The notes beneath the pieces were generated by a model. The model was not told the DNA's origin. It searched no databases and worked only from the letters and a program-made list of their open reading frames with translations. DNA of 64,000 nt from Candidatus Campbellbacteria bacterium GW2011_OD1_34_28 (lineage in GTDB: Bacteria; Patescibacteriota; Minisyncoccia; Phycocordibacterales; UBA12079). Location: contig CP011215.1 of assembly GCA_001029775.1 (NCBI GenBank), forward strand, positions 32,148-96,147, given 5' to 3'. Position 1 is the stretch's first letter. Every line of letters starts with the position of its first letter. Position numbers and translations under genes: made by a program. Below, in pieces: positions 5,700 through 61,003 of this stretch.

Positions 5700-5905
5700 G
5701 GTCCATTTTTCAAAAAATTGTGGGTTGCTTCACTTCGTTCGCAAAGACGGATTTTGCGAAGCAAAATCCGTCACCCTCGTCGTCTTCGCGAGGCGAAGCC
5801 GAAGCGATCCACGTCGTTTTTTTTTGGATTCCTGCCTGTCGTGTTGTTGCTTTTCTTTCAGAAAAGAGGCGGGGCAAATTTCCCGCCTAAATCCTAAACC
5901 CTCTT
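5700..5905. repeat. GC-rich hairpin-dense intergenic repeat element, copy 1
   Basis: Perfect hairpin gacggattttgc-gaa-gcaaaatccgtc, the words cgtcttcgcgag and gaagcgatccacgtcg, and the terminal hairpin ggcggggcaaatttcccgcc followed by taaatcctaa. About 55% GC against a genome of about 33%. Confidence 0.6.
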
Positions 5906-5907
5906 AA

Positions 5908-6603
5908 TTATTTCTGCATCGTAACCACCCAAAATTTTCTTTTGAAAACCCTTCCGTTCACAGTAGAATAACTCTCTGTTTTTTTCATATCCAATATTTT
6001 AAAATATTTTGAATATATTTCTATAAAATTATCTTTTGAAAAAACTCTTTCTATCAAACCTGTTTCTGGCATTATATAAGTATCTTTTTCTCTAGCTGAG
6101 TTGTTTTTCAAAAGAAATTGAGCATTTTTATCTCCATCTTTACACAAAGCTCTCACAAAAAATATTCCGTCTTTTCTCAAAACACGATTTACTTCTGACA
6201 GATAAATTTCTCTTTCTGCTTCATCCAAAGAGTTAGAACTTGTGATATCAATAACCAGATCAAAATATTCATTTTCAAACGAATATTTTTCTCCAATACT
6301 TTGCTTTATATATTTAGCACCAAGATTTCCAGCTCTTGTTTTTGCTGTATCAATCGCAGTTTGAGAGATTTCCATACCAAAAACATCCGCCTGTTTTTCG
6401 GCTAAATAATTTGCATTTCTCCCAGTCCCCGATCCTAAATCCAAAACCCTTAACCCCTCAAAACTTACAGGGACTCGGTCCCTGTAAGTTTTGAGGTATG
6501 TTTTATACCATTTTAAAAATTTCAAAAAAACAGACTGCGGTTTGTCGTGTCCTGTTACCAATTTTGGATTTCTGTATTCTTTTTCCCAAATATCTTTTTG
6601 CAT
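5908..6603 (-). CDS. Class I SAM-dependent methyltransferase
   Basis: 231 aa. The VLDLGSGTGRNANYLAEK motif I is followed by DVFGMEIS and DLVID. Confidence 0.75.
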   Translation of the reverse strand: MQKDIWEKEYRNPKLVTGHDKPQSVFLKFLKWYKTYLKTYRDRVPVSFEGLRVLDLGSGTGRNANYLAEKQADVFGMEISQTAIDTAKTRAGNLGAKYIKQSIGEKYSFENEYFDLVIDITSSNSLDEAEREIYLSEVNRVLRKDGIFFVRALCKDGDKNAQFLLKNNSAREKDTYIMPETGLIERVFSKDNFIEIYSKYFKILDMKKTESYSTVNGRVFKRKFWVVTMQK

Positions 6604-6720
6604 AAAATAAATATACCAATATACGAATTATGCGAATAAAACGAATAAATACAAATATTAGGAATCGTTATTTGTAACGATTTGTATAATTCGTATCATT
6701 CGTATATTAGTATGTTTATC

Positions 6721-7485
6721 TTAAATTTTTGTCAGAATTTCGGGGTCACCATCTGTGATTAAAATAGTGTGCTCAAAATGTGCACTTCTACTGCCATCCG
6801 CAGTTCTAAAAGTATATCCATCTTTATCTAAAACAACATGTTTCTTTCCTTCATTCAACATCGGTTCAAGAGCGAGAACCATTCCCTTTTGCAATTTTGT
6901 CCCTTGTCCTTTCTTGCCAACATTTGCTATGTATGGCTCTTCATGGACATTTTTTCCAACGCCGTGTCCACCCAACTCATCTATTACACCAAATTTAAAA
7001 GGTTTAACAAAATTTTCAATAGCATATCCAATATCGCCTGTCTTGTTTCCTGCCCTAGCCTGTTTAATTCCTTCATACAAAGACTGTTTTGTTACCTCAA
7101 TCAATTTTTTTGCTTCTTTATCTATTTCTCCCACTCCAACCGTCATTGCCATATCGGTAACTAATCCGTTGTGAACAAGCCCTAAATCAATTCCCACAAT
7201 ATCACCTTCTTGTAACACCTTTTCATTACCCGATGAAATGCCGTGCACGACTTCATCGTTTACTGACACACACAAAGTAGCAGGATATGGAAATCTGGCC
7301 CCTTCCGGTTTGTAATGCAAAAAAGCAGGCTTGTCACCGCCTTCTCTAATCAACTGTTCGGCATAATCGTTTAAATCATTAATTACCGCCCCCGGAATAA
7401 CCTTTTTTGCTGTTTCATTCAAAATAAAGGCAAGTCTCTTGCCTCCTTCTCGTAATATATTTATTTCACTTTCTGTATATATCAT
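6721..7485 (-). CDS. map: Methionine aminopeptidase type I
   Basis: Conserved MetAP-I metal-ligand blocks (VVHGI, GDIVGIDLG, HGVGKNVHEEP, LALEPM, HFEHT). The start is moved to MIYTESEINILREG (ATG at 7483-7485) because the longer ORF would read through the upstream terminator hairpin. Confidence 0.88.
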   Translation of the reverse strand: MIYTESEINILREGGKRLAFILNETAKKVIPGAVINDLNDYAEQLIREGGDKPAFLHYKPEGARFPYPATLCVSVNDEVVHGISSGNEKVLQEGDIVGIDLGLVHNGLVTDMAMTVGVGEIDKEAKKLIEVTKQSLYEGIKQARAGNKTGDIGYAIENFVKPFKFGVIDELGGHGVGKNVHEEPYIANVGKKGQGTKLQKGMVLALEPMLNEGKKHVVLDKDGYTFRTADGSRSAHFEHTILITDGDPEILTKI

Positions 7486-7530: not shown

Positions 7531-7661
7531 AAACAACAAACTACAATCACCAAATCACAAACAAATTCAAAATAACAAATACGAAATCCGAGACAAGTGT
7601 TTATTATTTTGAAATTAAAATTTGTAATTTGTTTAGAATTTAAAGTTTAAAAAATCTGATT

Positions 7662-8255
7662 TTACAATCCGATTTTTTCAATCATTTCTTGATAAACTTG
7701 CTCTATCGTTTGTTCCCCATTTACCTCGACAAATTTATATGTTGAATTATTTTTTAAATATTCAATTGCTGGCAAAACATCTCTATCAAACCAATCCAAT
7801 CTTTTCTTTACCTGTTCCTCATCGTCATCATGTCTTCCCCTGCCCAACAATCTTGCTGTTGACCATTCACGAGAAACATTCATATATACAACAGTTGGAT
7901 CTTCTCTTTTATAAAATCTGATTGCAGAATCGAGTACTTCAGCTTCGTTCAAACGACGAGGTGTCCCGTCCAGAATAAGATGTTCACTGCCTTTCATTTC
8001 CTCAATCAGATCTTTTCCCCAAAGATACACAACCAAAAATTCTGGCTGTAATTCTCCTTTTTCAACAATTTCTCTTGAAAGTCTATTTGAATAACTATCA
8101 TTTTCCCAAAATTTTCTTAAAACATTACCTGTACTAATATAATTGATCCCGATTTCAGGATTTTTTTCTTGTAATTTTTTTGATAACAAATCAATCTGTG
8201 TTCCTTTTCCACAACCAGACCGACCGATAAAAATGTAGGTTTTTTGTGCAGACAT
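7662..8255 (-). CDS. adk: Adenylate kinase family (nucleoside monophosphate kinase)
   Basis: P-loop YIFIGRSGCGKGTQ, ILDGTPRRLNEAEVL, and the LID-region RGRHDDDEEQVKKRL. The start is set at MSAQKTY (ATG at 8253-8255). The 85 upstream codons of the track ORF lie in the GC-rich repeat and are rejected. Confidence 0.78.
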   Translation of the reverse strand: MSAQKTYIFIGRSGCGKGTQIDLLSKKLQEKNPEIGINYISTGNVLRKFWENDSYSNRLSREIVEKGELQPEFLVVYLWGKDLIEEMKGSEHLILDGTPRRLNEAEVLDSAIRFYKREDPTVVYMNVSREWSTARLLGRGRHDDDEEQVKKRLDWFDRDVLPAIEYLKNNSTYKFVEVNGEQTIEQVYQEMIEKIGL

Positions 8256-8289
8256 ACTAATATACAAATTATACGAATAATACTCTGAA

Positions 8290-8600
8290 TTATACTTGAT
8301 TTTCTGAAGCCCTGCCTCTTCTCTTCCAGGAAAGAGGCAGGGATTCACGAAGTTATTTTGGATTGCTTTGTCGTTTCGTTTCACTCCACTCCTCACAAAG
8401 ACGACGAAGTTGTCGTCTTTGTGAGGAGCTTGCGACGAAGCAATCCACGCCGTCCGTTCGTCGTTCTGGATCGCTTCGCTACCGCTCGCGAAGACGAAGT
8501 TTTGCTCCACAAAACTTCGTGACGAATTTCCGCAGGAAATTCGTCTTTGCGAGCGAAGCGAAGCAATCCACGTCGTTCATTTGTCTTCGTTACTATCGAC
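8290..8600. repeat. GC-rich hairpin-dense intergenic repeat element, copy 2
   Basis: Hairpins ccctgcctct..agaggcaggg, the 17-bp stem ctcctcacaaagacgac-gaagtt-gtcgtctttgtgaggag, gaagttttg..caaaacttc and gacgaatttcc-gcag-ggaaattcgtc, plus the family words gcgaagcaatccacgtcg and tctttgcgag. Confidence 0.6.
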
Positions 8601-11600
8601 TATAAACTATCGACTGTCGTCGTAGCTGTCGGTTCTACCACAGGATCTGTTGTCGTTGCTGGTTCTGTTGTTACAGCTGTTGAATCTTCAACAAGTACTG
8701 TTCTTGTACTTGTTGAAGTATTTGTTCCATCAAACGCTGTGTAAGTAACTGTGTATTCTCCGGCGATTGTTGTGTCTACTATATCTAGGTCGTGAGTATC
8801 TACTATTAGAGAGTTTCCTTGGTAGTCTACTGCTGTAGCGCCTAGATCAATATAGTTGCTGTTTATTTCTACTACGGCTGGGTTGTTGCCTGTGATTGTT
8901 ATAACTGGTGCGATAGCATTCTGGATTGCTTCGCTATCGTTCGCAGAGACGGAAGATGTGTTAGAAGAAGTATCTGTGTTTTCCAACAAACTTCTCAACT
9001 GATCTTTGTTTATACACACATCATCGATACAAATTTCTTGTCTCGCTTTTATTTTATCCGCAACCAATTCTGTAACCGAAGCCAAAACATTTGAAATTCT
9101 TTCATCCAATGTGTTTATCAATTCTTGCATTGCTTTTACAATCACCGAAGTCAATTTTGGATAATCAAGGTTCATGATAGTACCTTTGTCGTCGTGTCCG
9201 ATGACTTCGGGAATTAACAAGTCAACTTCTTCTGCGATGAATCCGATTTGAGTAGATGATGAATTAATAAAGTCTGATTTCCAATTGAATGATACAGGGC
9301 GTAATTGGAGTACTGTGTCTAGACCGTATGTTAGATCGTTTATGTTTGTTTTGAATCTCTCTGATGATGCTCCACAGGCGGTTGTTGATGTGGCTAGTTC
9401 TCCGCTGGTTGATATACAAGCGTAATAACCTGTTCCGTCGTTGGTTAGACCGGTGAAAGCAGCTGTTCCGTTTACGGAAAGAGTTCTCCATGGGGTGGTG
9501 GTGCCGATGCCGACGTTGCCACCGAAATAGTTCGTGCCACCTTGCGAATATATAGAATAATTATTTGAAGATCCTTTATTTGGAGTTTCTATGTATAGCT
9601 GATATTGATTGGCAAGGACACTGGCGCCTCCATTTTCATAATTATTAAGATAGATATTGTAAGCATTCGTCACATTACCAGACGATCCCCAAACGCCAGA
9701 ACCGGCTTCAGAATATATTCCATAGATATTGCCAATGTTAGCGGTGGATCCGGACATAGCTCCGCCATAAGCTGCTACTTTCATACCGTATATATTTGAT
9801 ATATTTGATACTCCTGCATTTTCCAATCCTGAAGCGGCAAAACCACTTGATTCTGTTCCAATTATAGTTGTCACATCTCCATTTCCATAGAAAGTTCCCT
9901 TGTTAACGGATCCCTTAATTTCTTGGGTATCGCCGGAACCATAAACTCTGGCATCAGAAAATGCTCCATAAACCCAATTAATATTACCATTTCCATCATG
10001 ATATGCTGTTGTTCTAATTCCTTGCATTCCTGAACTAGAAAAATTCGTATTATCTCCAAAAGGTGTTGAAATAGCATTATTAATACCAATACCTTGTCCT
10101 TCTTTTTCAATGCTCAGCTTCCCCAACGGACTCATCGTCCCCACACCCACATTCCCATTATTCAACACAGCAAACAAAGAAGTGGTTGCACTCGCTGTAG
10201 AGCTGGCGATATTGAACAAAGTTGTGTTTGTTTCTCCGTTGTTTGCGTGGATTGATAGTTTTGCAAAAGGTGAGGTGGTGCCGATGCCTATTTTGCCACT
10301 TGATAGAGTCGTTCCCGTTCCATTTATTCCTGTTCCAAAAATTAAGTTTCCAATGTTTAATTGATTTGAGGCGGTGGCAGAAGGAGCATCAACATCGTAA
10401 CCTATAACAAGGTTGTTTGATCCTGTTGTTAAATTATTACCTGCTTGGTATCCAAGAAAAATATTATTTGAACCAGAAACCAATGAACCTGCATTGTATC
10501 CAATACCAACACTCCTAGAAGGTGATCCCCCATAAGCCAAGGAATTTATGCCAATAGCGACATTATAACTTCCTGTACTGTTGTTATATAATACTGAATC
10601 TCCTATTCCAACGTTAGAAGCTCCTGTAGTATTTGAATAAAGTGACATATCTCCCACAGCGCTGTTCAATCCGCCTGTTGTATTTGAAACCAAAGATTCT
10701 GTTCCGAGAGCAATATTATAACCTCCGGAAATATTTGCATACAAAGACATTGATCCGCTTGCTATGTTACGAGAACCACCAATATTTGAAAATAAAGCAT
10801 AAGATCCTGAGGCTATATTATTATTTCCAGTCGTATTTGAATAAAGGGATGTGTATCCGCTGGCAACATTGTTGTATCCTTCGGTATTGAAATGCAAAGA
10901 CTTGTACCCAAAAGAAGCATTGAGATAGCCTGTCGTATTTGAATATAGCGACTGATATCCTACCGCTGCGTTTCTATAACCAGAAGTATTTGAACGCAAT
11001 GACTGATAACCAATACCAACATTATAATTATCTGTTAGATCATCACTTCTTCCAGCCTCATATCCAAAATAAGTAGAACCACCCAAACCGGTTTGAGAAA
11101 CCCTTCCATACACGGATAACTTTGCTCCTGCGTTTTCTGAGGTTGTTGTTCCAATACTAACTCTATTATTTACTGAATCAATAACCAGAGTATCTGTATC
11201 AAAAACAGCACTGTCTATTGTCAAATTTGAAATATTTCCGTTAGTAAAGTTTAATTCTGTTCCTGAAACATTTGAGGTGCTAATGTTTGAATCATAAATT
11301 TCAACCCCACCCAAATTATCTATATCGTTGGTAGCAGAGATCACTTGATATGTGTTGGTGATTTGAGCATTTGTATTTGATGAGAGTTTGTAGATTTCAC
11401 TTCTTAATTCGTTGTTTAGTTTTTGAAGATCTTCCAGTGTGACGCCTGGTGTTTGGATTACTCTTTCTACTACGGTTTCTTTTATTATTTCTCTGATTGG
11501 GTTTGTAACGATGGTGGTGGTCTTTGGGGTTGCGGGAACTGAAGGAACATTTTCCGAGATCTCACCTCTGTCCGCTTCGCTCTCCGAGGAAAGACCTCGG

Positions 11601-11869
11601 GAAATTTCGTCTTCGTTTGTGCTATTGGTTGTTAGCTGTCCACTGTCAGCTGTTTCTTCAGCGGAGCTGAAAAAACCCGAGATTGTTCTGTATACATAAA
11701 CAGCCGTCTTTTCAACGGTGTTCAAATTGGAAATATTTTGAACTTCACTCGCTTCAACTTTTTGTAGAAAAAGTAAATTATCATCATTTGCTAGAAAACC
11801 ACCTCCCAACATCAACATAACGGCAAATACGATAAAAAACTGTTTTATAAATTTATCAATAAGATTCAT
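8600..11869 (-). CDS. Giant secreted surface protein 1 (1089 aa), built like a phage tail fibre. Signal anchor, block shared with giant 2, 14-15-aa xNTAxGYxSLxSNTTG repeat array, intramolecular-chaperone (Peptidase S74) domain, coiled coil, DUF5011-type Ig domain, Thr/Pro-rich tail.
   Basis: N-terminal signal MNLIDKFIKQFFIVFAVMLMLGGG. About 20 tandem repeats of the type NAAVGYQSLYSNTTGYLNASFGYKSL. ASSERFKTNINDLTYGLDTVLQLRPVSFNWKSD...IGFIAEEVDLLIPEVI matches the tailspike C-terminal intramolecular-chaperone consensus. ITITGNNPAVVEINSNYIDLGATAVDYQGNSLIVDT...GEYTVTYTAFDG is DUF5011-like. Confidence 0.8.
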   Translation of the reverse strand: MNLIDKFIKQFFIVFAVMLMLGGGFLANDDNLLFLQKVEASEVQNISNLNTVEKTAVYVYRTISGFFSSAEETADSGQLTTNSTNEDEISRGLSSESEADRGEISENVPSVPATPKTTTIVTNPIREIIKETVVERVIQTPGVTLEDLQKLNNELRSEIYKLSSNTNAQITNTYQVISATNDIDNLGGVEIYDSNISTSNVSGTELNFTNGNISNLTIDSAVFDTDTLVIDSVNNRVSIGTTTSENAGAKLSVYGRVSQTGLGGSTYFGYEAGRSDDLTDNYNVGIGYQSLRSNTSGYRNAAVGYQSLYSNTTGYLNASFGYKSLHFNTEGYNNVASGYTSLYSNTTGNNNIASGSYALFSNIGGSRNIASGSMSLYANISGGYNIALGTESLVSNTTGGLNSAVGDMSLYSNTTGASNVGIGDSVLYNNSTGSYNVAIGINSLAYGGSPSRSVGIGYNAGSLVSGSNNIFLGYQAGNNLTTGSNNLVIGYDVDAPSATASNQLNIGNLIFGTGINGTGTTLSSGKIGIGTTSPFAKLSIHANNGETNTTLFNIASSTASATTSLFAVLNNGNVGVGTMSPLGKLSIEKEGQGIGINNAISTPFGDNTNFSSSGMQGIRTTAYHDGNGNINWVYGAFSDARVYGSGDTQEIKGSVNKGTFYGNGDVTTIIGTESSGFAASGLENAGVSNISNIYGMKVAAYGGAMSGSTANIGNIYGIYSEAGSGVWGSSGNVTNAYNIYLNNYENGGASVLANQYQLYIETPNKGSSNNYSIYSQGGTNYFGGNVGIGTTTPWRTLSVNGTAAFTGLTNDGTGYYACISTSGELATSTTACGASSERFKTNINDLTYGLDTVLQLRPVSFNWKSDFINSSSTQIGFIAEEVDLLIPEVIGHDDKGTIMNLDYPKLTSVIVKAMQELINTLDERISNVLASVTELVADKIKARQEICIDDVCINKDQLRSLLENTDTSSNTSSVSANDSEAIQNAIAPVITITGNNPAVVEINSNYIDLGATAVDYQGNSLIVDTHDLDIVDTTIAGEYTVTYTAFDGTNTSTSTRTVLVEDSTAVTTEPATTTDPVVEPTATTTVDSL

Positions 11870-11947: not shown

Positions 11948-12035
11948 GATTTCTTTCTATTTATATAGACCTGTCAATTTTTTAACCAAAAAATCTGACA
12001 AAGACTTTAAATATTCATCGTCATAAACAAAGACA
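11948..12035. repeat. Duplicated fragment of the obg 3' end and its downstream sequence
   Basis: About 85 bp (tatatagacctgtcaattttttaaccaaaaaatctgacaaagactttaaatattcatcgtcataaaca) nearly identical to 18905-18990 (the obg stop-codon region). Lies between giant genes 1 and 2. Confidence 0.7.
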
Positions 12036-12076: not shown

Positions 12077-15000
12077 CTATTGACTATCAACTACCGGTTC
12101 CGTCGTTGTAGCTACAGAATCTAGACTATCGACTATTGCCTCTTCAACAAGTACTATTCTCGTACTTGTTGAAGTCAGTGTTCCATCAAACGCTGTGTAA
12201 GTAACTGTGTATTCTCCTGCTGTTGTTGTGTCTACTGTATCTGCGTCTATTGTATCTACTATTAGAGAGTTTCCTTGATAGTCTACTGCTGTAGCGCCTA
12301 GATCAATATAGTTGCTGTTTATTTCTACTACGGCTGGGTTGTTGCCTGTGATTGTTATTGTGGGAGGAGTGGTGTTTGAAGGTTCTGCTGTTGGCTGTTG
12401 GCTGTTGGCTGTATTAGTGTTATCAACACCCTCTAAAGCATTCAATCTAGCTTCCAATTCATTCAATCTATTTTCAAGACCAGAAACTTTTGCGATCAAT
12501 TCTTGTGTCTTGTTCCAAATTTCCTTAATCGCATTTACCAAAACCGAAGTCAGCTTTGGATAATCAAGGTTCATGATAGTACCTTTGTCGTCGTGTCCGA
12601 TAACTTCGGGAATTAACAAGTCAACTTCTTCTGCGATGAATCCGATTTGAGTAGATGATGAATTAATAAAGTCTGATTTCCAGTTGAAAGATACAGGGCG
12701 TAGTTGAAGGACTGTGTCTAGACCGTATGTTAGATCGTTGATGTTTGTTTTAAATCTTTCTGACGATGCTCCACAAGCGGTTGTTGATGTGGCTAGTTCT
12801 CCTGTTCCAGCGTTGGCACAGACATAATAGCCAGTGCCGTTGTTAGCAAGACTTTGAAACGCTACTGTTCCATCTACGGTTAGTTTGTAATTTGGAGTAG
12901 TTGAACCGATTCCGATGTTGCCGGTTGAGATGGTTGTGCCGTTTCCATCTATACCTGTCCCAAAGATTAGATTTCCAATTGTCATTGTGTTATTACTTGT
13001 TGCCGTTGGTGAATCAATGTTGTAACCAATAACTATGTTGTTGTCTCCCGTTGTTAAGGTCTCTCCAGCCTGATAGCCAAGTAATATATTATTATCTCCT
13101 GTCGTTAAATTAACCCCAGATCGATACCCAATAATAACACCCCCCTGATTGTAGGATACTGTGCTAACACCTTGACCGGCTTGATAACCGATCGCAACAG
13201 TAGAAGTAGCTGATCCATTATATCGATTTGCCTGAGTACCTATTGCCACATTTGAAGAACCTGTTCGATTACTACGAAGAGATTCAGACCCAATTGAAGT
13301 ATTGTAAGTTCCTGTAGTATTTAAAGACAGCGAATCATATCCGAGAGCGCTATTATAATTTCCTGTGGTGTTATTAGTTAAAGAAAAACCGGCGGCCATA
13401 TTATAAGAACCTGTTGTATTTGCACCCATGCTTAAACCTCCAACGGCTGTATTATAAATTCCTGTTGTATTGACATCCAAGGCACCAGCTCCAACCGCGG
13501 TATTATAATAACCTGTAGTATTGGCTTTCAATGCTTGATAGCCTACAGCAGTATTACTACTACTTGTTGTTGCTAAATAAAGTGCTTCGTAACCCAAAGC
13601 GGTGTTATTTAGAGCACCACTCAACAAAGCGTTTCCTGCTCCAATACCGACAGAAACAGAACGACTGGTTGAAGAGGCAAAAAGTATTTTGCTTCCCCCA
13701 ATAGAATATCCTCCATTTGTTGTATCTGTAGAATTAAATGCTGTTGCAGAAATCGATGAGGTTGCTGTTAAACTATTGACGGTTAAATCACCAGATATCC
13801 ACGCACTACCTTCTACACTCAACTTTCTGAAAGGTGAGGTGGTGCCGATGCCCACATTCCCCTTCAAAGCCGTAGTTGTGATACTGTCATTTCCAAGAAC
13901 AACAGAGTTGCTTCCTACTCCTGTGGCATCGTAACCGATTACAATTTCGTTTTGGTCATTGTCAGCAAGGGCTTTGGTGTTGTAGCCTAAGAATGTATTG
14001 TAGTCTCCTGTTGTGTTACCTGTTGAGCCGTTGGCAATGTAGCGACCTGCATTGTATCCAAAGGCTATATTATAATGACCTGTGGAGTTAGCATAGAGAG
14101 AAGAATAACCAACTGCAGTGTTATACATACCCGTAGAGTTGGCATAAAGAGAAGTGTACCCACTTGCAGTGTTGTATCTGCCTGAAGTGTTTGAAAAGAG
14201 AGATTCATAACCACTTGCAGTGTTGTGATAACCGGAGGTGTTGGACTGAAGAGAAGAATATCCAATCGCGGTGTTGTGATAACCGGTGTTGTTGTTATAC
14301 ATAGAGCTACCACCATAAGCAGTATTACGGTAACCTGTGGTATTAAGGTATAAAGTAAAAATTCCACTTGCGGTGTTACCATAACCAGTATTATTGGTGA
14401 AAAGAGCATTAACACCATTTGCAGTGTTAAAGTAACCTAGAGTATTTGCATAAAGAGCACGGTAACCTGTTGCGGTGTTATAACTGCCATGACTTGCGCT
14501 TGTCGCCGTGCTACCCATCGTAAGATTTCCCGCTTCTTCTCCCACAAAAGTATTCTGTCCTGTTGTCGTCACAGTTCCGTTGTTTCCATAATTGAAATTA
14601 TGAATGAAACTTGTTCCGTTTTTTGAGATTACCCCGTATTGATTTGTATTAGTGGTGTTGTCCAAATTCAAATTACCTTGATAGATATCGAGTTTTGCAG
14701 AAGGAGTCATTGTTCCTATTCCTGTATACCCAGAAGGGCCAGCAAAAAAAGAAATGAAATCTTGAACTCCATCGTTTGTTCCTATTAAAACACTATTGGC
14801 AATATTATTATTTAAAGAACCTCCTCCTGATCCACTATAGCCAAAACCTATAGTAATTGATTTCGTCGCCGAAGCCTTCGCTGTGCCTCCTAAAACAACT
14901 GAATACTGACCGGCAGCTGTTGCCCCTCCTTTTCCAAAAACAGAAGAATACTGCCCACTAGCAATACCTGAACCAACAACAATAGACCCTTCACCTGTTG

Positions 15001-18000
15001 CACTACTACTTTCTCCTAATGCTATGGATTTCCATCCACTTGCAGAACCATTAATCATGGAAACATTAACGCCACCAGAAGAGTTAACCTTAAATCCATT
15101 AGACACTTCTAGTTTGGCTGTCGGACTCGCCGTCCCAATGCCCACATTCCCCGTACTCCTATCCACCACCAATTTGTTTGTTCCCACAGCAAAACCACCA
15201 GCAAAAGTAGAAGTTGCTGTTGTTGAAGTTGCGTTGAAATAGTCGGCAACGACATCTCCGACAACGGAAAGTTTTGCGAAAGGTGAGGTGGTGCCGATGC
15301 CGACATTTCCTCCTAAAAACACCCCTGCATAATTGTTGATTGCTCCTGTAGAAGCATTCACCAATAACCCGTAGGCATTTGTTACTACGGCTTGGCTTGT
15401 GCTCACTGGTTTAGTTGGCACAAGAATACTATAAGCATTTGTAATAGAAACATTTGCACTTGTGCTTTTCCAAGGCCATGCGGTGACTAAACTTGCTGCT
15501 TCTGTAACCACTTGATTTGCAGTAGTGCTATACAGTTGCATATTACCCAATTTAGTTCCGTATATTGTATCGTAAGTCGTTGGATCAGAACCAGATAGAG
15601 TTACAAGATGATCACGCAATGTTATTCCCGTAACGCCCGAAGATGTCAATGTGGTGACGGGATTAATATCAAGAAATGATGCAGGGGCGGTAGTATTGAT
15701 TCCTAAATATCCAGATGAATTTATTCTTGCTCTTTCAAATGTATTAGCTGAACTACTTGTTGTCCAAAAACTAAGGTATCCCTGTGCATTTCCACCGGTC
15801 GAATTTTCCTTTGCTCCTTTTATTGAACCAAAAGTCCAAAAACCAGTTGAACCGGAGTATACACCACCCAATCCGATGCTTCCCCCTTTATTAATCGCGT
15901 TTGTATCAGTAGACATTACAAGCATATTACCGGCATATTGGTCATTGCTACCCAATACTAAATCGCTTCCACGTATATCAAGCGTACGCTGTGGGTTTAT
16001 CGTACCAAGGCCCACAACAGGTGTCGCGAGGTTAATATTTGAAGTCAAGCCATTAACAACCAATCCTGAAAACTGAGGAGAATCAGTCGTTCGCAGACTC
16101 TGGCTCAATGAGACATTGCCACCACTAATTGAGAGATTTCTGACAGTTTCATTTTTAATCCAAGTGGTCCCTATATATATTGAATTTGCTAAAGCAATAT
16201 ACCCGGTCGGAGTTAGATGCAAATAATCAGCGAGAGCATACGAGGCAAGAAGGGTGTCAGGATTGGTTGGATCTTCGAGCGCAGAATAAGCATCTATCCT
16301 ATAGTCAACATCGGATGCCATGTTAAGTATCCAATTATTAACATCTTCTAAAACTACCTGACGAGCTTCCGTCCATGAAGTGCTAGTTTTAAACGGAGTA
16401 ATCGTAACAGCCACAACCTTAGATCCGTTGGCGTTAGCCGCAGTGTACATAGCTTGTAAATTACTTTCAATAGTGGCGGCAGATGCGTTTGCTGCTATAT
16501 CATTTATACCTCCCAGGATAATTACATATTCAGCATCGTCAACTACTACATCACCAGAAAAACGCGCTGCCATTTGTGTAGTAGTATTGCCTCCAACGCC
16601 TTTGCTATTCACATTCCATAATGCCCCCAGTAAATCAGCCAATGCACTTCCATAGTTTGTTAAGCTATCACCTATAGCATATACTTGATGAGTTTGAAGA
16701 ATGTTCACTTTATTCAGAGAAATATCTCCGTTTACATCAAACTTCGCTCCCGGACTCTCCGTCCCCACCCCCACATTCCCTGTAGAATAATCAACAACAA
16801 ATTTGTTTGTTCCAACAGCCAAACCTCCTGCAAATGTAGAAGTTGCTGTGGCTGATGTTGCTGTAAAGTAAGGGGCAGAAATTGAACTTGTGGCAGTAAT
16901 TGAATTAGCGGTTAAATCACCACTGATCCACGCATTACCTTCTACACTCAACTTTCTGAAAGGTGAAGTCGTCCCAATCCCAACATTTCCACTTGCTCTC
17001 CAAACATCTGTTCCGTTGGATGTCCAATTACCAACGGCTGAACCTGATAAAAGATTACCACCCCAGTATAAATCATTGGAGATGTTGTAAAGTCTGTCGG
17101 TTGTGATTGATGGAGCTGATATTGGTGCAAGGTATGTTGCTCCGTTTACTGAAAGAGTATCTGAAGGTGTTGTTGATCCGATGCCTACACGGTTGTTGAT
17201 TGAATCGATGTAAAGAGTGTCTGTGTCAAAGATTGTGTCTCCTGATACGGTAAGAGTGTTTAGAGTGGTGTTGCCTGTTACAGTTAGATTGCCAGAGTAT
17301 GTTCCACTGGTTGCAGAAATAGGGCCACCGTATGTAGAGGTAGCTGTGCCTGTGACAGTTAGGTTTTGAATTGTTCCGTTGGTAAAGCTTAGTTCTGTTC
17401 CTGAGACATTTGAGGAACTGATGTTTGAGTCGGTGATTGTGACACTACCCAGATTGTCGATGTTGTTAGTAGCAGAGATTACTTGGTAGGTGTTGGTGAT
17501 TTGAGCATTTGTATTTGAAGAGAGTTTGTAGATTTCACTTCTCAGTTCGTTGTTTAGTTTTTGAAGATCTTCCAGTGTGATGCCGGATGTTTGGATTACT
17601 CTTTCTACAACAACTTCTTTGATTATTTCTCTGATTGGGTTTGTAACGATGGTGGTGGTCTTTGGAGTTGCGGGAACTGAAGGAACATTTTCCGAGATCT
17701 CGCCTCTGTCCGCTTCGCTCTCCGAGGAAAGACCTCGAGAAATTTCGTCTTCGTTTGTGCTATTGGTTGTTAGCTGTCCGCTGTCAGCTTCGTCAACGCT
17801 ATCAGCTGTTGGCTGTAAGCTATCAGCTTCGTTACTAAACAAATTATTAACAAACTTATACCAAACAATCGCAAACTGTTCCACAGGACTTGCTGTTTCG
17901 TAGACTGCTAAAGCTAGGTTGTTTACACCCGTCTTCGCGAACGAAGTGAAGCGACCTGCCTCGCCGGCAGGCAGGTCCATGTCGTCCGTTTTCTGGATTG

Positions 18001-18541
18001 CTTCGTCATAAACTCCTCGCAAAGACGACGAACCAGAGACAATTTTGTTTTTTAATCCATCTAAATAATCTAAAAAGTCTTGTGTATATGTATCTACTGT
18101 TTTTACATTTTTACTGTCTTTTATTTCTTTGATGGGAGAATTGTCATTGCTATCAAGAATTTGTGTTTTGAACAAATCTCTTTTTTCTGCACCAACTTTG
18201 TATGTTATTTCTTTTGTGTTTTTTACCGCAGAAAAAACAGCCTCCCCTGTTTTGTTGAGTTGGTTTAATATGTCTCCTGAAAAGTAACCTGCTCCGATTA
18301 AGAGAATCGCTAAAACAGCCGTTGACAATGCTCTCACTGGCAAAATCATCGGCTTGTTTGTTTTGTTTTTATATTCAAAAAGTTTTTCTAATTCAACAAA
18401 ATATTCCCCTTCTACCTTTGTAAAATCTATCTTTTCTTCACGGCACAGGTCTTTAATATGTTCTTCATCCAATTCTATGATTTTTGTCGCTTTTTTTGTT
18501 GAAAGATACCTTTTGCCATTTAAAAATATCTCACTTTGCAT
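12077..18541 (-). CDS. Giant surface protein 2 (about 2150 aa). N-terminal HTH-like cytoplasmic segment plus TM anchor, block shared with giant 1, repeat arrays, embedded SGNH/GDSL esterase domain, tail-fibre NTA-GY repeats, Peptidase S74 intramolecular chaperone domain, coiled coil, DUF5011 Ig domain.
   Basis: Track ORF is 12077..18589; the preferred start is MQSEIFLNGKRYLS (18541). TM segment LSTAVLAILLIGAGYF. A 110-aa block (ADSGQLTTNSTNEDEISRGL...NAQITNTYQVISATN) is nearly identical to giant 1. The SGNH motifs are AIGDSLT, GGNTT, GINDI and DYLHLT. The C-terminal 230 aa are nearly identical to giant 1. Confidence 0.8.
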   Translation of the reverse strand: MQSEIFLNGKRYLSTKKATKIIELDEEHIKDLCREEKIDFTKVEGEYFVELEKLFEYKNKTNKPMILPVRALSTAVLAILLIGAGYFSGDILNQLNKTGEAVFSAVKNTKEITYKVGAEKRDLFKTQILDSNDNSPIKEIKDSKNVKTVDTYTQDFLDYLDGLKNKIVSGSSSLRGVYDEAIQKTDDMDLPAGEAGRFTSFAKTGVNNLALAVYETASPVEQFAIVWYKFVNNLFSNEADSLQPTADSVDEADSGQLTTNSTNEDEISRGLSSESEADRGEISENVPSVPATPKTTTIVTNPIREIIKEVVVERVIQTSGITLEDLQKLNNELRSEIYKLSSNTNAQITNTYQVISATNNIDNLGSVTITDSNISSSNVSGTELSFTNGTIQNLTVTGTATSTYGGPISATSGTYSGNLTVTGNTTLNTLTVSGDTIFDTDTLYIDSINNRVGIGSTTPSDTLSVNGATYLAPISAPSITTDRLYNISNDLYWGGNLLSGSAVGNWTSNGTDVWRASGNVGIGTTSPFRKLSVEGNAWISGDLTANSITATSSISAPYFTATSATATSTFAGGLAVGTNKFVVDYSTGNVGVGTESPGAKFDVNGDISLNKVNILQTHQVYAIGDSLTNYGSALADLLGALWNVNSKGVGGNTTTQMAARFSGDVVVDDAEYVIILGGINDIAANASAATIESNLQAMYTAANANGSKVVAVTITPFKTSTSWTEARQVVLEDVNNWILNMASDVDYRIDAYSALEDPTNPDTLLASYALADYLHLTPTGYIALANSIYIGTTWIKNETVRNLSISGGNVSLSQSLRTTDSPQFSGLVVNGLTSNINLATPVVGLGTINPQRTLDIRGSDLVLGSNDQYAGNMLVMSTDTNAINKGGSIGLGGVYSGSTGFWTFGSIKGAKENSTGGNAQGYLSFWTTSSSANTFERARINSSGYLGINTTAPASFLDINPVTTLTSSGVTGITLRDHLVTLSGSDPTTYDTIYGTKLGNMQLYSTTANQVVTEAASLVTAWPWKSTSANVSITNAYSILVPTKPVSTSQAVVTNAYGLLVNASTGAINNYAGVFLGGNVGIGTTSPFAKLSVVGDVVADYFNATSTTATSTFAGGFAVGTNKLVVDRSTGNVGIGTASPTAKLEVSNGFKVNSSGGVNVSMINGSASGWKSIALGESSSATGEGSIVVGSGIASGQYSSVFGKGGATAAGQYSVVLGGTAKASATKSITIGFGYSGSGGGSLNNNIANSVLIGTNDGVQDFISFFAGPSGYTGIGTMTPSAKLDIYQGNLNLDNTTNTNQYGVISKNGTSFIHNFNYGNNGTVTTTGQNTFVGEEAGNLTMGSTATSASHGSYNTATGYRALYANTLGYFNTANGVNALFTNNTGYGNTASGIFTLYLNTTGYRNTAYGGSSMYNNNTGYHNTAIGYSSLQSNTSGYHNTASGYESLFSNTSGRYNTASGYTSLYANSTGMYNTAVGYSSLYANSTGHYNIAFGYNAGRYIANGSTGNTTGDYNTFLGYNTKALADNDQNEIVIGYDATGVGSNSVVLGNDSITTTALKGNVGIGTTSPFRKLSVEGSAWISGDLTVNSLTATSSISATAFNSTDTTNGGYSIGGSKILFASSTSRSVSVGIGAGNALLSGALNNTALGYEALYLATTSSSNTAVGYQALKANTTGYYNTAVGAGALDVNTTGIYNTAVGGLSMGANTTGSYNMAAGFSLTNNTTGNYNSALGYDSLSLNTTGTYNTSIGSESLRSNRTGSSNVAIGTQANRYNGSATSTVAIGYQAGQGVSTVSYNQGGVIIGYRSGVNLTTGDNNILLGYQAGETLTTGDNNIVIGYNIDSPTATSNNTMTIGNLIFGTGIDGNGTTISTGNIGIGSTTPNYKLTVDGTVAFQSLANNGTGYYVCANAGTGELATSTTACGASSERFKTNINDLTYGLDTVLQLRPVSFNWKSDFINSSSTQIGFIAEEVDLLIPEVIGHDDKGTIMNLDYPKLTSVLVNAIKEIWNKTQELIAKVSGLENRLNELEARLNALEGVDNTNTANSQQPTAEPSNTTPPTITITGNNPAVVEINSNYIDLGATAVDYQGNSLIVDTIDADTVDTTTAGEYTVTYTAFDGTLTSTSTRIVLVEEAIVDSLDSVATTTEPVVDSQ
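17925..18045. repeat. GC-rich repeat element, copy 3, embedded in-frame inside giant gene 2
   Basis: cttcgcgaacgaagtgaagcgacctgcctcgccggcaggcaggtc...ggattgcttcg...tcgcaaagacgacgaa shares the gacctgcc..ggcaggtc hairpin and family words with copy 4. It is translated as ...DDMDLPAGEAGRFTSFAKTG... with no stop. Confidence 0.55.
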
Positions 18542-18639
18542 ATTTATCTTTAGCCAAATTATACCAATAATTAAGGCTAATTTAAACAAAAAAGGGTGCG
18601 TAAGTGTTGATAAATAAATTGAAGCTTATAGCTCTATAG

Positions 18640-18895
18640 CACAGACGAAAACGAAGCTGACAGCGGACAGTCAATAGCTAACAGCACGGATGATGTGGAT
18701 TGCTTCGCTACGCTCGCAATGACGACGAAGGTGACGGAATTTCGTTTTGCGAAATTCCGTCTTCGCGAGGAGTGAAGCGACCTGCCTCGCCGACAGGCAG
18801 GTCGTTTCACCTTCGGTTCGCAAAGACGGACAAAGGCGGGAAATTTGCTTCGCAAATTTCCCGCCTAAATTCTAATTTCTAATTTCTAAATTCTC
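18640..18895. repeat. GC-rich hairpin-dense intergenic repeat element, copy 4
   Basis: Hairpins gacggaatttcg-tttt-gcgaaattccgtc and gacctgcct-cgccgac-aggcaggtc, the 12-bp stem ggcgggaaattt..aaatttcccgcc, the words ggattgcttcgc, cttcgcgagg and tcgcaaagacgg, and a tail ctaattt x3. Confidence 0.6.
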
Positions 18896-18899
18896 GTCT

Positions 18900-19874
18900 T
18901 TATTTATATAGCTCTGTCAATTTTTTAACCAAAAAATCTGACAAAGACTTTAAAGATTCATCGTCATAAACAGAAACAGAGACAACATCTTCACAATATT
19001 TTCTCAATTTTTCTTCCGCCTTTTTTGTTGTCTTGCTGTCAACCAAATCAGTCTTTGTCAAAATAATAATCTCGGATTTTTCAGCCAATTCTGGATCAAA
19101 TTTTTTCAATTCATTTTTAATTGTTTTATATGCTTTTACAACATCTTCATTTTCAAGAGAAATACAGTGCAAAAGAAGTTTTGTCCTTTTTATATGTCTT
19201 AAAAACTTGTGTCCCAAACCTTTTCCCTCTGATGCCCCTTCTATAAGCCCCGGAATATCCGCCAAAATATATTTGTACAATTCTCCCAAATTTGGTTCCA
19301 ATGTTGTAAAAGGATAAGCTCCCACTTTTGCATTTGCACGAGTTAATTCGTTAAGCAAAGAAGATTTTCCAGCACTTGGCAAACCGATAAGACCAGCGTC
19401 CGCAATCAATTCTAGCTCAATAAAAAATTCTGCGTCTTCGCCTTTTTTCCCCTCCGTAGATTCTACTGGGCTAGTATTTTTTGAACCCTTAAAATTTTCA
19501 TTTCCCAAACCGCCGTGACCTCCTTTCAAAACCAAAATATTCTCTCCCTCCTTAATCAATTCAAATTTTTCATCAGTTATCAAATTTTTTACAATAGAAC
19601 CAATAGGCAAATCAATAAACAAATCATCACCATTTTTTCCATGCATACTATTTTTCTCTCCATTTCCTCCGTTTTCCGCAGTAAACTTTTTATTTTTTGT
19701 GTAACGAGAAAGAACCTCTATATCTCTAATTGCACGAATATAGACATCGGCACCTTTTCCGCCATTGCCCCCAGCAGGACCCATAAGAGGTTTGTATTTT
19801 TCTCTTCTCCATCTAACAACACCGTCTCCCCCTTTTCCGGCTCTGGCATAAATTTTTAGTTCATCTATTAACAT
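18900..19874 (-). CDS. obg: GTPase Obg/CgtA
   Basis: The Obg fold Gly-rich N-domain (KIYARAGKGGDGVVRWRREKY...GGNGGKGADVYI) followed by a G-domain with GLPSAGKSSLLN, DIPGLIEGA and LTKTDL. The start is chosen at MLIDELKIY (19874); the track ORF extends 12 codons further. Confidence 0.85.
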   Translation of the reverse strand: MLIDELKIYARAGKGGDGVVRWRREKYKPLMGPAGGNGGKGADVYIRAIRDIEVLSRYTKNKKFTAENGGNGEKNSMHGKNGDDLFIDLPIGSIVKNLITDEKFELIKEGENILVLKGGHGGLGNENFKGSKNTSPVESTEGKKGEDAEFFIELELIADAGLIGLPSAGKSSLLNELTRANAKVGAYPFTTLEPNLGELYKYILADIPGLIEGASEGKGLGHKFLRHIKRTKLLLHCISLENEDVVKAYKTIKNELKKFDPELAEKSEIIILTKTDLVDSKTTKKAEEKLRKYCEDVVSVSVYDDESLKSLSDFLVKKLTELYK

Positions 19875-41158: not shown

Positions 41159-41204
41159 TTATTTTTTTAGCTTTAAATTACGAAATACTCTGGGTAGCAA
41201 TATT

Positions 41205-41440
41205 GCTTAAATTTTCTCTCAAAAAATTAAAAGTGCTATCGCTCGCGAAGAGAAACGAGGACATCGTGGATCGCGTCGCTTCGCTCGCGAAGACGAATTT
41301 TCTGAAAGAAAATTCGTTGACGAAGTTGGGCTTTGCCCAACTTTGTCTTTGCGAGCCTTGGCGAAGCAATCCACGTCGTCGTTCGTCTTTGCGAGCCTTG
41401 GCGAAGCAATCCAGTTTCGTAATTCAAAGTTCTTTTATTA
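41205..41440. repeat. GC-rich hairpin-dense intergenic repeat element, copy 5
   Basis: Hairpins gacgaattttct-gaaa-gaaaattcgt and gaagttgggc-tttg-cccaacttt. A tandem direct repeat tcgtctttgcgagccttggcgaagcaatcca x2. The words ctcgcgaag and gcgaagcaatccacgtcg. Confidence 0.6.
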
Positions 41441-41451
41441 CAGCATATACT

Positions 41452-42486
41452 TTACCACATAACGACTTCTGTTTCTATGTTTATCCCTGTTTTCTCTTTT
41501 ACATCTTTGGCTATTTTTTCTACAAGATTTTTTACATCTTTTGCTGTGGCATTCCCGTGATTAATCACAATCAAAGAATGTTTTTCAAAAATCCCCGCTT
41601 CCCCATCTTTGTAACCCTTCCAACCAAACTGTTCCAAAAGATGGCCAAGTGGAATTTTATGTTCTCCTTGCAGAGAAGTATTACATCCTATATCAATTTT
41701 ATAATGTGGCATATCAGGAGAGATTTTTTTAAGGGCGAACAATGTCTCACTATTGACGACAGGAAGTTTAAAGAAAGATCCGGCTGTTCCAAATTGTTTT
41801 AAATCAGGAAGTTTATTTTTTCTAATGAAAAGTAATATCTCTCTCATCTTTCCAAGGCTAACATTTTTCTCTTCCAAATTATTTTCTTTCAAATAATTTT
41901 TTACATCTTTGTAGTCCAAATTTAATGTGCCTTCTTTTTTTAAAACAAAATTTACTCTCAGAATAATATATTTCTTCCCCTCCTCTGTTTTAAAAATACT
42001 GTGTCTATAAATAAAATCACACTGTTTGTTAGTTAAAATCTCAATTTCCAAAGTTTCTATATTAAACACTTCGACACTCTCCACAGAATCCTTAACCTCT
42101 GCACCATAACATTCAATATTTTGAACAACACTCGCTCCGACCGTTCCAGGAATATAAGAGAGATTTTCTAAACCATATAGATTTTTGTCTACAGTTTGTT
42201 GGACCAAATCATCCCAAACCTCTCCTGCTCCCACAATCACTTGGGACTCCGAATCCCAAGTGACTCCTTTTATTTCAATTTTCAAAACCAAACCGTCTAC
42301 GCCTTCATCAGAAATCAAAAGATTGGATCCTCCGCCCAATATATAGAGAGGCAGTTGATTTTGCTTCGCAAAAATCACTGCGCCTTTCAAGTCCTCTTCA
42401 TTTTTTATAACAGCAAAATATCTAGCGCATCCGCCAATTTTAAAAGTAGTATAATCCGCAAGCAAAACATTTTCTTCAATATTCAT
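41452..42486 (-). CDS. murB: UDP-N-acetylenolpyruvoylglucosamine reductase
   Basis: 344 aa. FAD-binding GGGSNLL and a MurB C-terminal domain. Confidence 0.85.
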   Translation of the reverse strand: MNIEENVLLADYTTFKIGGCARYFAVIKNEEDLKGAVIFAKQNQLPLYILGGGSNLLISDEGVDGLVLKIEIKGVTWDSESQVIVGAGEVWDDLVQQTVDKNLYGLENLSYIPGTVGASVVQNIECYGAEVKDSVESVEVFNIETLEIEILTNKQCDFIYRHSIFKTEEGKKYIILRVNFVLKKEGTLNLDYKDVKNYLKENNLEEKNVSLGKMREILLFIRKNKLPDLKQFGTAGSFFKLPVVNSETLFALKKISPDMPHYKIDIGCNTSLQGEHKIPLGHLLEQFGWKGYKDGEAGIFEKHSLIVINHGNATAKDVKNLVEKIAKDVKEKTGINIETEVVMW

Positions 42487-59845: not shown

Positions 59846-61003
59846 TTACTTTAAACAACTCTCCCAATCTTCTTTCATTTTATTCAAATACTCTTGTTTG
59901 TCTTTTATAACATTTTCTTCAATTCTTTTTCTGGCTTTAATGGACATATCACACAAAAGCAATTTATCCTTCAAAAGTTTTTTAATTTCTGCGACAAAAC
60001 AATCTTTATCACCTGTCTTACATACTTTTATATCCCCTTCTTTTAACACACCGCCTACCAAACCAACATCAGTTGTCAGAATAGGACATCCCGATGCAGA
60101 GGCTTCTATCAAAGACATCCCGTAACCCTCGTAGTTAGAAGTGAACAAAAACAAATCGGCTGTTTTGTAATAAGAAAACAAATCTTTTTGCCATCCTTCG
60201 AAGATTATACTAGCTGATAGCTTATAGCCGATAGCTGATAGCTCTAGTTTTCTTTTCAAAGATCCGTCGCCTACAATAACAAGTCCTGCTTTGGGATGTT
60301 TCTTAATAATTTTCTTCATTACTTTTATAGCCATAGAAATATTCTTCTCTTTTTCTAAACGACAAGTCATCAAAATAATAAAATCAAATTGAGGATATTT
60401 TTTGTGCAAATCAAAGGCGGGTATTTTATTTTCGTAATTTTTAATATCAACAAAAATTGGCAAAACAATTGGTTCAGTTTTTAGTTTATAGTTTTTAGTT
60501 TTTAGAGACTGACTTATTCGCTCGCTAACTACCCTCACCCCATCGGCTTTTGGTAATAAAAATTTTGCCAAACAAACTCTGACACGATTTAAGAAAGATT
60601 CTTTTATAAAATATTTACTCAAAAAATCAGTGTGTATTTGTAAGTGCAATTTTGCACCTGTTTTTTTCGCAATCCACCAACCTACAAAACCAGTTTCAAA
60701 AACGTCCTGAGTCGTAACCAGATTACCTTCTACTTTCCACTCTCTACTTTCAAAAATTTCTTTAGAAATTTTTATTGCATCAAAAATATAAAACCAACGA
60801 TTTCTGGAATTTGTTGGATATAAAGTAACATTGGTCCCTAAAATCCTTTCTACTTGATACTTACTACTTGCTACTCTTGTCGACGAATTGAATATCACAA
60901 TATTTAGTTCGTCGACAAGTTTGCCATACTGAACAACCCTCTGTCGAACGGCAGAATCCCTCTCAAGAATCTTTCTATCTGTTGAAATCATTAAAATTTT
61001 CAT
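59846..61003 (-). CDS. Glycosyltransferase family 4
   Basis: 385 aa. GMSLIEASASGCPILTTDVGLVGGVL. Contains three distinct heptamer tracts. Confidence 0.7.
   Translation of the reverse strand: MKILMISTDRKILERDSAVRQRVVQYGKLVDELNIVIFNSSTRVASSKYQVERILGTNVTLYPTNSRNRWFYIFDAIKISKEIFESREWKVEGNLVTTQDVFETGFVGWWIAKKTGAKLHLQIHTDFLSKYFIKESFLNRVRVCLAKFLLPKADGVRVVSERISQSLKTKNYKLKTEPIVLPIFVDIKNYENKIPAFDLHKKYPQFDFIILMTCRLEKEKNISMAIKVMKKIIKKHPKAGLVIVGDGSLKRKLELSAIGYKLSASIIFEGWQKDLFSYYKTADLFLFTSNYEGYGMSLIEASASGCPILTTDVGLVGGVLKEGDIKVCKTGDKDCFVAEIKKLLKDKLLLCDMSIKARKRIEENVIKDKQEYLNKMKEDWESCLK
60211..60247. repeat. Imperfect heptanucleotide tandem tract (TAGCTNA x5) inside a glycosyltransferase gene
   Basis: tagctga tagctta tagccga tagctga tagctct; encodes ...LELSAIGYKLSAS.... 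Other tracts in the same gene are TTTTTAG x4 (60478-60505) and TACTTNN x4 (60851-60878). Confidence 0.6.

Follow-up and report, generated by a model that had tools for sequence, protein, structure and literature searches.

Palindromic repeats that lie in frame inside genes are best known from Rickettsia. The Rickettsia palindromic element (RPE) is a palindromic sequence roughly 150 bp long, which codes for a conserved peptide and occurs in many unrelated genes (Ogata et al. 2000, as summarised in PMC10969869), and bacterial MITEs (miniature transposable elements with inverted repeats), among them ERIC, BOX and others, can also form in-frame fusions (PMC10969869). Here we describe a GC-rich palindromic repeat at positions 17926-18035 of a 64,000-nt stretch of contig CP011215.1 from Candidatus Campbellbacteria bacterium GW2011_OD1_34_28, a bacterium of the Candidate Phyla Radiation (CPR; Patescibacteria). 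The whole stretch is called the window, and coordinates are window positions unless a locus (L and a number) is named; the nearest relatives of the window carry the names Campbellbacteria and Pacebacteria. The repeat is very probably a copy, with no gene of its own, from a GC-rich family of modular repeats that form hairpins, and it resides in the coding sequence of a long gene, giant gene 2. An in-frame palindromic repeat is thereby shown in a CPR genome, concentrated at a variable cassette site of giant surface proteins that such episymbionts probably use for host contact, and a concrete route is outlined by which non-coding repeats can become protein sequence and a source of surface-protein variation.

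The likeness to RPE lies in a dispersed palindromic repeat of a small AT-rich genome that sits in frame inside genes, is translated as an extra peptide and differs in presence or absence between orthologues. However, in place of an element of about 150 bp with a conserved peptide there are modules of 30-70 nt, in varying orders, in at least two frames and in both orientations, and they are found only in the linkers of one surface-protein family of a CPR bacterium rather than in many unrelated genes. By analogy, the repeat appears to work like RPE, but these features set it apart, and it is probably not of the RPE lineage.

Repetitive extragenic palindromes (REP) and REPINs resemble the family in being short, GC-rich, imperfect intergenic palindromes, often arranged as inverted pairs that form long hairpins. 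Unlike them, the modules described here bracket a gene for a GIY-YIG nuclease, and a gene of the Y1 type that encodes REP-associated tyrosine transposases (RAYT) was not found among the scanned open reading frames (ORFs) of the window; with no Y1_Tnp match in that set, a RAYT/REP association is unsupported. One Campbellbacteria relative has an IS200-like Y1_Tnp gene (L003 3545-4213, 29.3 bits), with no module words adjacent to it. With MITEs the repeat shares small non-autonomous units, terminal inverted repeats, residence in ORFs and the addition of peptide sequence. It differs from them in that neither a target-site duplication nor a parent insertion sequence was found here, and in that the candidate full-length form would carry a GIY-YIG gene, which is bracketed or adjoined by modules in nine of nine contexts.

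The repeat copy in giant gene 2 and its family

An earlier note on this DNA had reported, at 17925-18045, a hairpin and several repeat words also present in an intergenic copy, within a stretch that the gene translates without a stop. All of the words are present there on the plus strand, each located by word match:

17934-17941, plus strand: cttcgcga
17946-17954, plus strand: gtgaagcga
17953-17977, plus strand: gacctgcc-N9-ggcaggtc, with a loop of 9 nt
17995-18005, plus strand: ggattgcttcg
18016-18027, plus strand: ctcgcaaagacg

The open frame is likewise as described: a minus-strand ORF, 12077..18589, crosses the repeat without a stop as ...SSSLRGVYDEAIQKTDDMDLPAGEAGRFTSFAKTGVNN..., and its read-through translation of the repeat region is SSSLRGVYDEAIQKTDDMDLPAGEAGRFTSFAKTG. 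The site stands out as a GC island, with a local GC content of 0.55 against a window mean of 0.35. Kinship to the intergenic copy is real, the two sharing 33 nt at 97% identity (family D17) and aligning by blastn at 92% identity over 49 nt (E = 1e-11), a similarity far above chance. The nearest copy to the in-gene repeat lies 826 nt off, in the same orientation (D17).

Comparison of orthologues set the boundaries of two modules within the copy, and a second repeat family is read in frame a little further into the gene:

17994..18035, minus strand: end-module of 42 nt, consisting of CGTCTTTGCGAGG, a spacer and then CGAAGCAATCCA; translated SSLRGVYDEAIQ
17926..17993, minus strand: hairpin unit of 68 nt with the core GACCTGCC-N9-GGCAGGTC at 17953-17977; translated KTDDMDLPAGEAGRFTSFAKTG
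17749..17833, minus strand: second in-frame repeat family, with the words CAGCTGATAGC / GCTGACAGCGGACAGC; translated ADSLQPTADSVDEADSGQLTTNST

The hairpin unit is the segment that differs among orthologues. Its identity to 18757-18803 is 92% across 49 nt; to L003 and L004, two Campbellbacteria assemblies in which the same composite stands at another position of the homologous gene, it is 98% across 51 nt. The end-module is 89% complementary over 36 nt to an intergenic copy at 8412-8447 (I6); in the DNA alignment it has 7 nt more (18007-18013) than its counterpart in L001, which is translated in another frame as SSLRGTKQS. Because the order of modules in the gene differs from that in the intergenic copy, the repeat family is regarded as modular. 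Once translated, the in-gene copy contributes about 36 residues of spacer after the membrane anchor, and the tryptic peptides predicted for the repeat-encoded segment are GVYDEAIQK, TDDMDLPAGEAGR and FTSFAK. The second-family copy is 97% identical to 11611-11649 in a neighbouring long gene, giant gene 1 (D11), and 84% complementary over 37 nt to intergenic positions 18651-18687 (I8, I15). A second-family word of the AGCTGATAGCT type also occurs at 60212-60242, inside the glycosyltransferase-like ORF 59846..61003, where it is translated as ELSAIGYKLSAS; it could be a chance occurrence or a further in-frame copy.

Family words are over-represented in the window 17 to 50 times relative to shuffled sequences. 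Thus GGATTGCTTCG, with at most one mismatch, occurs 11 times where 0.63 occurrences are expected, and CTCGCRAWGACG occurs 14 times where 0.26 are expected. Six repeat clusters lie within the 64 kb, of which the intergenic ones (5720-5812, 8359-8575, 18650-18866 and 41265-41415) all fall between genes once the adk frame is shortened as described below. The recurring parts are an end-module (CGTCTTTGCGAG, a variable spacer, CGAAGCAATCCA) and a hairpin unit with the GACCTGCC-N9-GGCAGGTC core. End-modules often form inverted pairs that flank short variable hairpins, and the outer words CGTCTTTGCGAG and CTCGCGAAGACG base-pair in the predicted folds, inverted arms being present. The cluster closest to the in-gene copy supplies the reference unit:

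18650..18866, no strand assigned: repeat cluster in the intergenic region that separates obg from giant gene 2, holding the reference hairpin unit (18757-18829) and other modules

Within this cluster a hairpin sits just 3' of the obg stop codon, and for the cluster as a whole the predicted folding energy is -84.9 kcal/mol (z -7.07), a stability that not one of 200 shuffles reached. Other intergenic copies lie between housekeeping genes, namely between ndk and a methyltransferase gene and between secA and murB, and after dnaK in L011; intergenic repeat arrays are present in both L011 and L012.

This distribution bears on whether the in-gene segment could instead be ancestral coding sequence, the intergenic copies being decayed fragments of giant-gene linkers left behind by rearrangement. 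The giant genes have indeed been duplicated and rearranged, with paralogues in existence and the 3' end of obg duplicated (D12), and two of the clusters adjoin giant genes. However, copies also occur between unrelated housekeeping genes, the intergenic copies make the better hairpins (z -7.07 vs -1.9), GIY-YIG genes of other phyla have these words in their flanks, and the site shows no conservation of protein sequence. We therefore consider an ancestral coding origin very unlikely.

Rfam matched no family to the window region or to eight related loci, and a 40-aa search with the translated element gave no matches. A scan of a genome collection returned only one Paceibacterota genome, already known, together with unrelated weak matches, and a metagenome scan with the exact hairpin pattern returned two loci only, both of them intergenic arrays. 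In the literature the repeat words and translated peptides led only to unrelated primer matches; the coverage of that search is incomplete and such absence is not proof of novelty.

A variable site between conserved protein blocks

Giant gene 2 encodes an N-terminus resembling a helix-turn-helix (HTH) domain, a membrane anchor, a variable linker and a tail-fibre-like body, with Pfam matches to GDSL lipase, Peptidase_S74 and Bact_surface_Ig-like. The features that frame the repeat are:

12077..18541, minus strand: giant gene 2, 2,154 aa from the first ATG (ORF and translation)
18558..18586, minus strand: sigma-70-like promoter, TTTAAA, a 17-nt spacer and TGGTATAAT, just upstream of the ATG at 18539-18541
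18362..18508, minus strand: HTH_17-like domain, residues 12-60, a weak HTH_17 match (E 0.007) below the Pfam cut-off
18281..18349, minus strand: hydrophobic segment MILPVRALSTAVLAILLIGAGYF, following the basic stretch KNKTNKP (read from the translation)
17857..17925, minus strand: conserved motif VNNLALAVYETASPVEQFAIVWY, directly after the cassette site

The repeat occupies a site bounded by two conserved sequences, ...L(K/R)N(K/R)IVS on one side (...LKNKIVS in the window) and (V/I)NNLALAVYET on the other. The site comparison covers five homologues, P0005 being compared as protein sequence only, and all comparison sequences come from metagenome assemblies. Between the conserved boundaries the fillings are as follows:

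Window: 36 aa
P0005, whose N-terminus is 94% identical: 38 aa, VTADSLQLIADSVDETDLSVFANEVKQSTFVSSSLHKS, made of other modules and no hairpin
P0001/L001: 11 aa, DSSSLRGTKQS, the end-module only
P0002/L002: 52 aa, with other repeat words and a decayed hairpin
P0007: a filling without repeat words

The alignments thus show a variable cassette between conserved protein blocks, filled differently in each homologue and with the frame always kept. A segment equally GC-rich and conserved in all orthologues, as ordinary coding sequence would be, was not seen, and the suggestion of the earlier note that an in-frame insertion is tolerated in a linker is supported by conserved flanks around a filling that changes from one homologue to the next.

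L001 and P0005 lack the 68-nt hairpin unit, L002 has a decayed copy, and in L003 and L004 the unit is present elsewhere in the gene. At the DNA level, the window can be written as the L001 module plus 7 nt plus 68 nt, a total difference of 75 nt, and between the two indels the window and L001 use different reading frames. In the comparison with L002, flank identity is 94-96% and the final 24 nt of the unit agree throughout, and the 40-nt hairpin core, of equal length and without an indel, matches at 25 of 40 positions; 11 of the 15 differences are G or C in the window and A or T in L002. This local difference suggests either that one copy was overwritten by another, through gene conversion or re-insertion, or that the copy in L002 has decayed fast. 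A Paceibacterota paralogue, L007, has two in-frame repeat clusters, one of which lies between the HTH-like domain and the membrane anchor. When open frames no shorter than 250 codons are compared across the window and 15 of the fetched loci, in-frame copies within genuine long genes belong to the surface-protein family only, the other repeat-bearing frames being spurious.

One of the readings left open earlier places the true start of giant gene 2 downstream of the repeat, the upstream frame being an artefact of a stop-free GC-rich element. Repeat arrays certainly yield spurious frames, as in the adk frame 7662..8510, a 273-codon frame in L011 and a gene call inside the repeat in L004. However, the 176 codons that precede the repeat have a ratio of non-synonymous to synonymous substitution rates (dN/dS) of 0.14 relative to L001, and the 26 codons that follow it one of 0.04, in the same frame, and because both flanks are under purifying selection in one frame the repeat must lie inside a translated gene that starts upstream of it. 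The promoter-like site, which matches 10 of 12 consensus positions and has an extended -10 box at 18558-18566, is conserved together with the ATG and about 80 nt upstream of the ATG in L001, a Paceibacterota genome. P0005, P0001 and P0007 begin at the same methionine as giant gene 2 and conserve the anchor MILPVRALSTAVLAILLIGAGYF, the one segment within roughly the N-terminal 400 residues that is a candidate for a signal or a membrane anchor. For hundreds of codons past the repeat the frame contains neither an ATG nor a hydrophobic anchor, and no minus-strand promoter-like site lies below the repeat within the scanned interval 17400-19000. A downstream start is accordingly extremely unlikely, and giant gene 2 starts upstream of the repeat, at 18541. 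An intrinsic terminator-like site was likewise not found within 17400-19000.

The N-terminal domain has a dN/dS of 0.09, and the homologue P0011 exceeds the Pfam cut-off for HTH_17 (37.2 bits). The HTH_17-like N-terminus, which 18350-18541 encodes in the window, is common to 253 library proteins (P0011-P0153 among these), most of which are only about 300 aa long, with a few giants of 1,699 to 3,878 aa. AlphaFold2 was uninformative on the N-terminal 317 aa (predicted local distance difference test score, pLDDT, 33); the linker is presumably unstructured.

The short length of most proteins with this domain would suit a fusion, in which the first 200 or so codons (HTH-like domain plus anchor) were once a separate gene that the repeat joined to the giant gene, as would the different and shorter N-terminus of giant gene 1, whose homology to giant gene 2 starts only at ADSGQLTTNST. 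This proposal does not hold for the present repeat. P0005, P0001 and P0007 join the same HTH-anchor N-terminus to the same body with a different or a non-repeat filling, and the motif NNLALAVYET...WY follows the site in all three; in its longer form, VNNLALAVYETASPVEQFAIVWY, the motif is found in P0001, P0002, P0003 and P0005 and is more diverged in P0007. Another paralogue, L007, also has a homologous N-terminus of HTH-like domain and transmembrane segment (HTH-TM). Since the homologues share the join, any fusion must be old and independent of the present repeat copy, and a fusion made by the repeat is highly improbable. Nor is the join at all likely to be an assembly chimera produced by a collapsed repeat during metagenome assembly, a reading that is scarcely credible even though two equally oriented copies of the hairpin unit stand within 826 nt (D17) and, at a contig end, an array in L004 abuts the in-gene copy without the N-terminus. 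In three independent assemblies the same N-terminus runs on without a break into the same body, and both flanks are colinear with L001 and L002.

With the repeat thus taken to be a family copy within giant gene 2, its presence there could be explained as follows. Copies would enter the site, or be overwritten there, through recombination or gene conversion with other family copies; the junctions carry no target-site duplication, and a direct copy stands at a distance of 826 nt. A copy would survive if the spacer tolerates nearly any sequence, helped by the GC-rich element being free of stops in three of six frames. Selection would discard out-of-frame outcomes; the difference from L001 is here 7 + 68 = 75 nt.

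Several points weigh against this reading of the repeat. The predicted RNA fold of the in-gene copy, although it pairs the outer words and the core at -44.4 kcal/mol, beats shuffles by no more than a small margin (z -1.9). Relative to L001, no target-site duplication is visible where the 68-nt unit joins its flanks, and no nuclease or transposase gene was found among the scanned window ORFs. The division into 7 and 68 nt presumes that the shared module is homologous and was not acquired independently. With five sequences the direction of change is unrooted, and the difference could be an insertion in the window lineage or a loss or decay in the others. Finally, metagenome assemblies such as those compared here are prone to mis-joins at repeats.

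Repeat modules beside GIY-YIG nuclease genes

In L004 an array of hairpin units starts directly after a gene for a 96-aa GIY-YIG protein (PF01541, E 3e-15). L011 encodes the identical protein in a different genomic context, and the two loci share a DNA block, about 99% identical, that spans the gene with the sequence directly beside it and has repeat modules at its end. The genes in these two loci and in L013 lie at:

L004 7326-7616: GIY-YIG gene
L011 4974-5264: GIY-YIG gene
L013 1501-1797: GIY-YIG gene

The protein, of about 96 aa, has at least 7,965 homologues at E <= 1e-10. Nine contexts were fetched (L004, L011, L013-20, L023, L021, L022, L029, L031 and L032); L013-20, L023 and L032 come from CPR bacteria, L021 from Ferriphaselus, L022 from Kapabacteria, L029 from Ignavibacteria and L031 from a metagenome-assembled genome of Pseudomonadota. 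Repeat modules lie within about 100 nt of the GIY-YIG gene in all nine, on both sides of it in eight and downstream only in L032, and the flanking modules are mostly inverted copies (in L029 the arms are 31 nt long and 90% complementary). The modules are thus associated with GIY-YIG genes in these contexts from several lineages.

A site in the window offers a direct comparison with relatives that carry the gene. The window and L013-L020 share the order giant gene, adk, map, with the GIY-YIG gene between giant gene and adk in L013-L020, and alignment with L013 defines two repeat units in the interval between giant gene 1 and adk:

8359..8570, no strand assigned: repeat units U (8467-8570) and V (8359-8447)

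L013-L020 have unit U, the GIY-YIG gene and unit U again at this syntenic site (L013 1300-1920), and the window has a single U; the window site is therefore either empty or deleted. Free-standing GIY-YIG homing-endonuclease genes provide a parallel to this arrangement: a small gene with a GIY-YIG catalytic domain is present in relatives and not in the window, a syntenic site is occupied in L013 and empty in the window, and a near-identical block recurs in two contexts (L004 and L011). They differ in that the protein here, at about 96 aa, is the catalytic domain only, that its gene is bracketed by inverted modules, and that there are many gene-less copies of the flanks.

The end-words may accordingly be read as inverted ends of an element whose full-length form would carry the gene for the GIY-YIG nuclease of about 96 aa, and the copy in giant gene 2 would then be a non-autonomous relic, since it lacks the gene that such a form would carry. 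The nuclease might mobilise the modules. To our knowledge, GIY-YIG is not a known transposase. In a literature search that combined GIY-YIG with inverted repeats, MITEs, CPR and COG2827, no paper describing the association came up, within an incomplete coverage in which absence is not proof of novelty. Taken furthest, the CGTCwTTGCGAG...CGAAGCAATCC words would be the inverted ends of an undescribed, multi-phylum mobile element with the nuclease gene as its sole gene, and in CPR bacteria gene-less derivatives would have been recruited as exchangeable in-frame cassettes that diversify, and through recombination between copies sometimes truncate, the anchor-adjacent spacers of giant surface proteins. 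We put this forward tentatively, as possible but on balance doubtful. If a census confirms the tie to GIY-YIG genes, a very common unnamed repeat family will have gained a candidate mobilising enzyme.

Truncation of this kind could result from the arrangement in the window, where recombination between the two direct hairpin copies, at 17945-17977 and 18771-18803, would delete 826 nt, with the promoter and the first 190 or so codons of giant gene 2 among them. The locus L004 looks like such a deletion product, with an array that abuts the in-gene copy and no N-terminus. Its 7617-8060 interval holds the closest orthologue of the giant gene 2 body without the HTH-TM N-terminus, and the called gene start lies inside the repeat. 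The L004 arrangement could be a product of repeat-mediated deletion or, equally, a mis-join at the contig end.

Giant gene 1, neighbouring repeats and gene annotation

Giant gene 1 (8600..11869) is a paralogue of giant gene 2 that shares the body from ADSGQLTTNST onward. It has an in-frame module of its own, found by word search and six-frame translation:

8921..8956, minus strand: in-frame end-module in the C-terminal linker of giant gene 1, read as SVSANDSEAIQ

Giant gene 2 has no such module at the corresponding, paralogous position. A duplicate of the final 78 nt of obg (18901-18978) lies at 11958-12035, upstream of giant gene 1, with 94% identity (D12), and in L005 an orthologue of giant gene 1 follows obg directly. 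Because of the duplicated obg end and the gene order in L005, it seems that a duplication gave rise to giant gene 2, or inserted it, in the interval from obg to giant gene 1.

The repeats also affect how genes are called. In six-frame translation the GC-rich units are free of stops in three of six frames, and one and the same module is read as SSLRGVYDEAIQ, SSLRGTKQS, SVFASVAKQS or SVIARNEAIQ, and in reverse as RFTSFAKTG. Repeat arrays are unusually poor in stops and yield spurious protein calls; the long frames that result mislead gene callers on starts, as seen for adk, L004 and the 273-codon frame of L011. The open adk frame 7662..8510 runs about 85 codons too far, through the repeat cluster, and the true start is the ATG at 8255, as in L013. 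A plus-strand ORF over cluster 41265-41415 (41203..41802) likewise looks spurious, and the array at L011 2045-2863, which consists of repeats only, is open for 273 codons in one frame.

Two further repeats of a different kind lie near these genes. An AT-rich repeat of the GTATAATTCGTAT type occurs upstream of adk and near map (6603-6723 and 8252-8283), forming a 55-nt inverted pair at 6603-6723, and is also found in relatives (L001 5860-5920 and L013 1990-2035); it may be promoter-associated. Upstream of the giant gene 2 orthologue in L001, tandem 7-mers of the GTAAGGT/GTAAGGA type (L001 5690-5830) take the place of the GC-rich cluster of the window.

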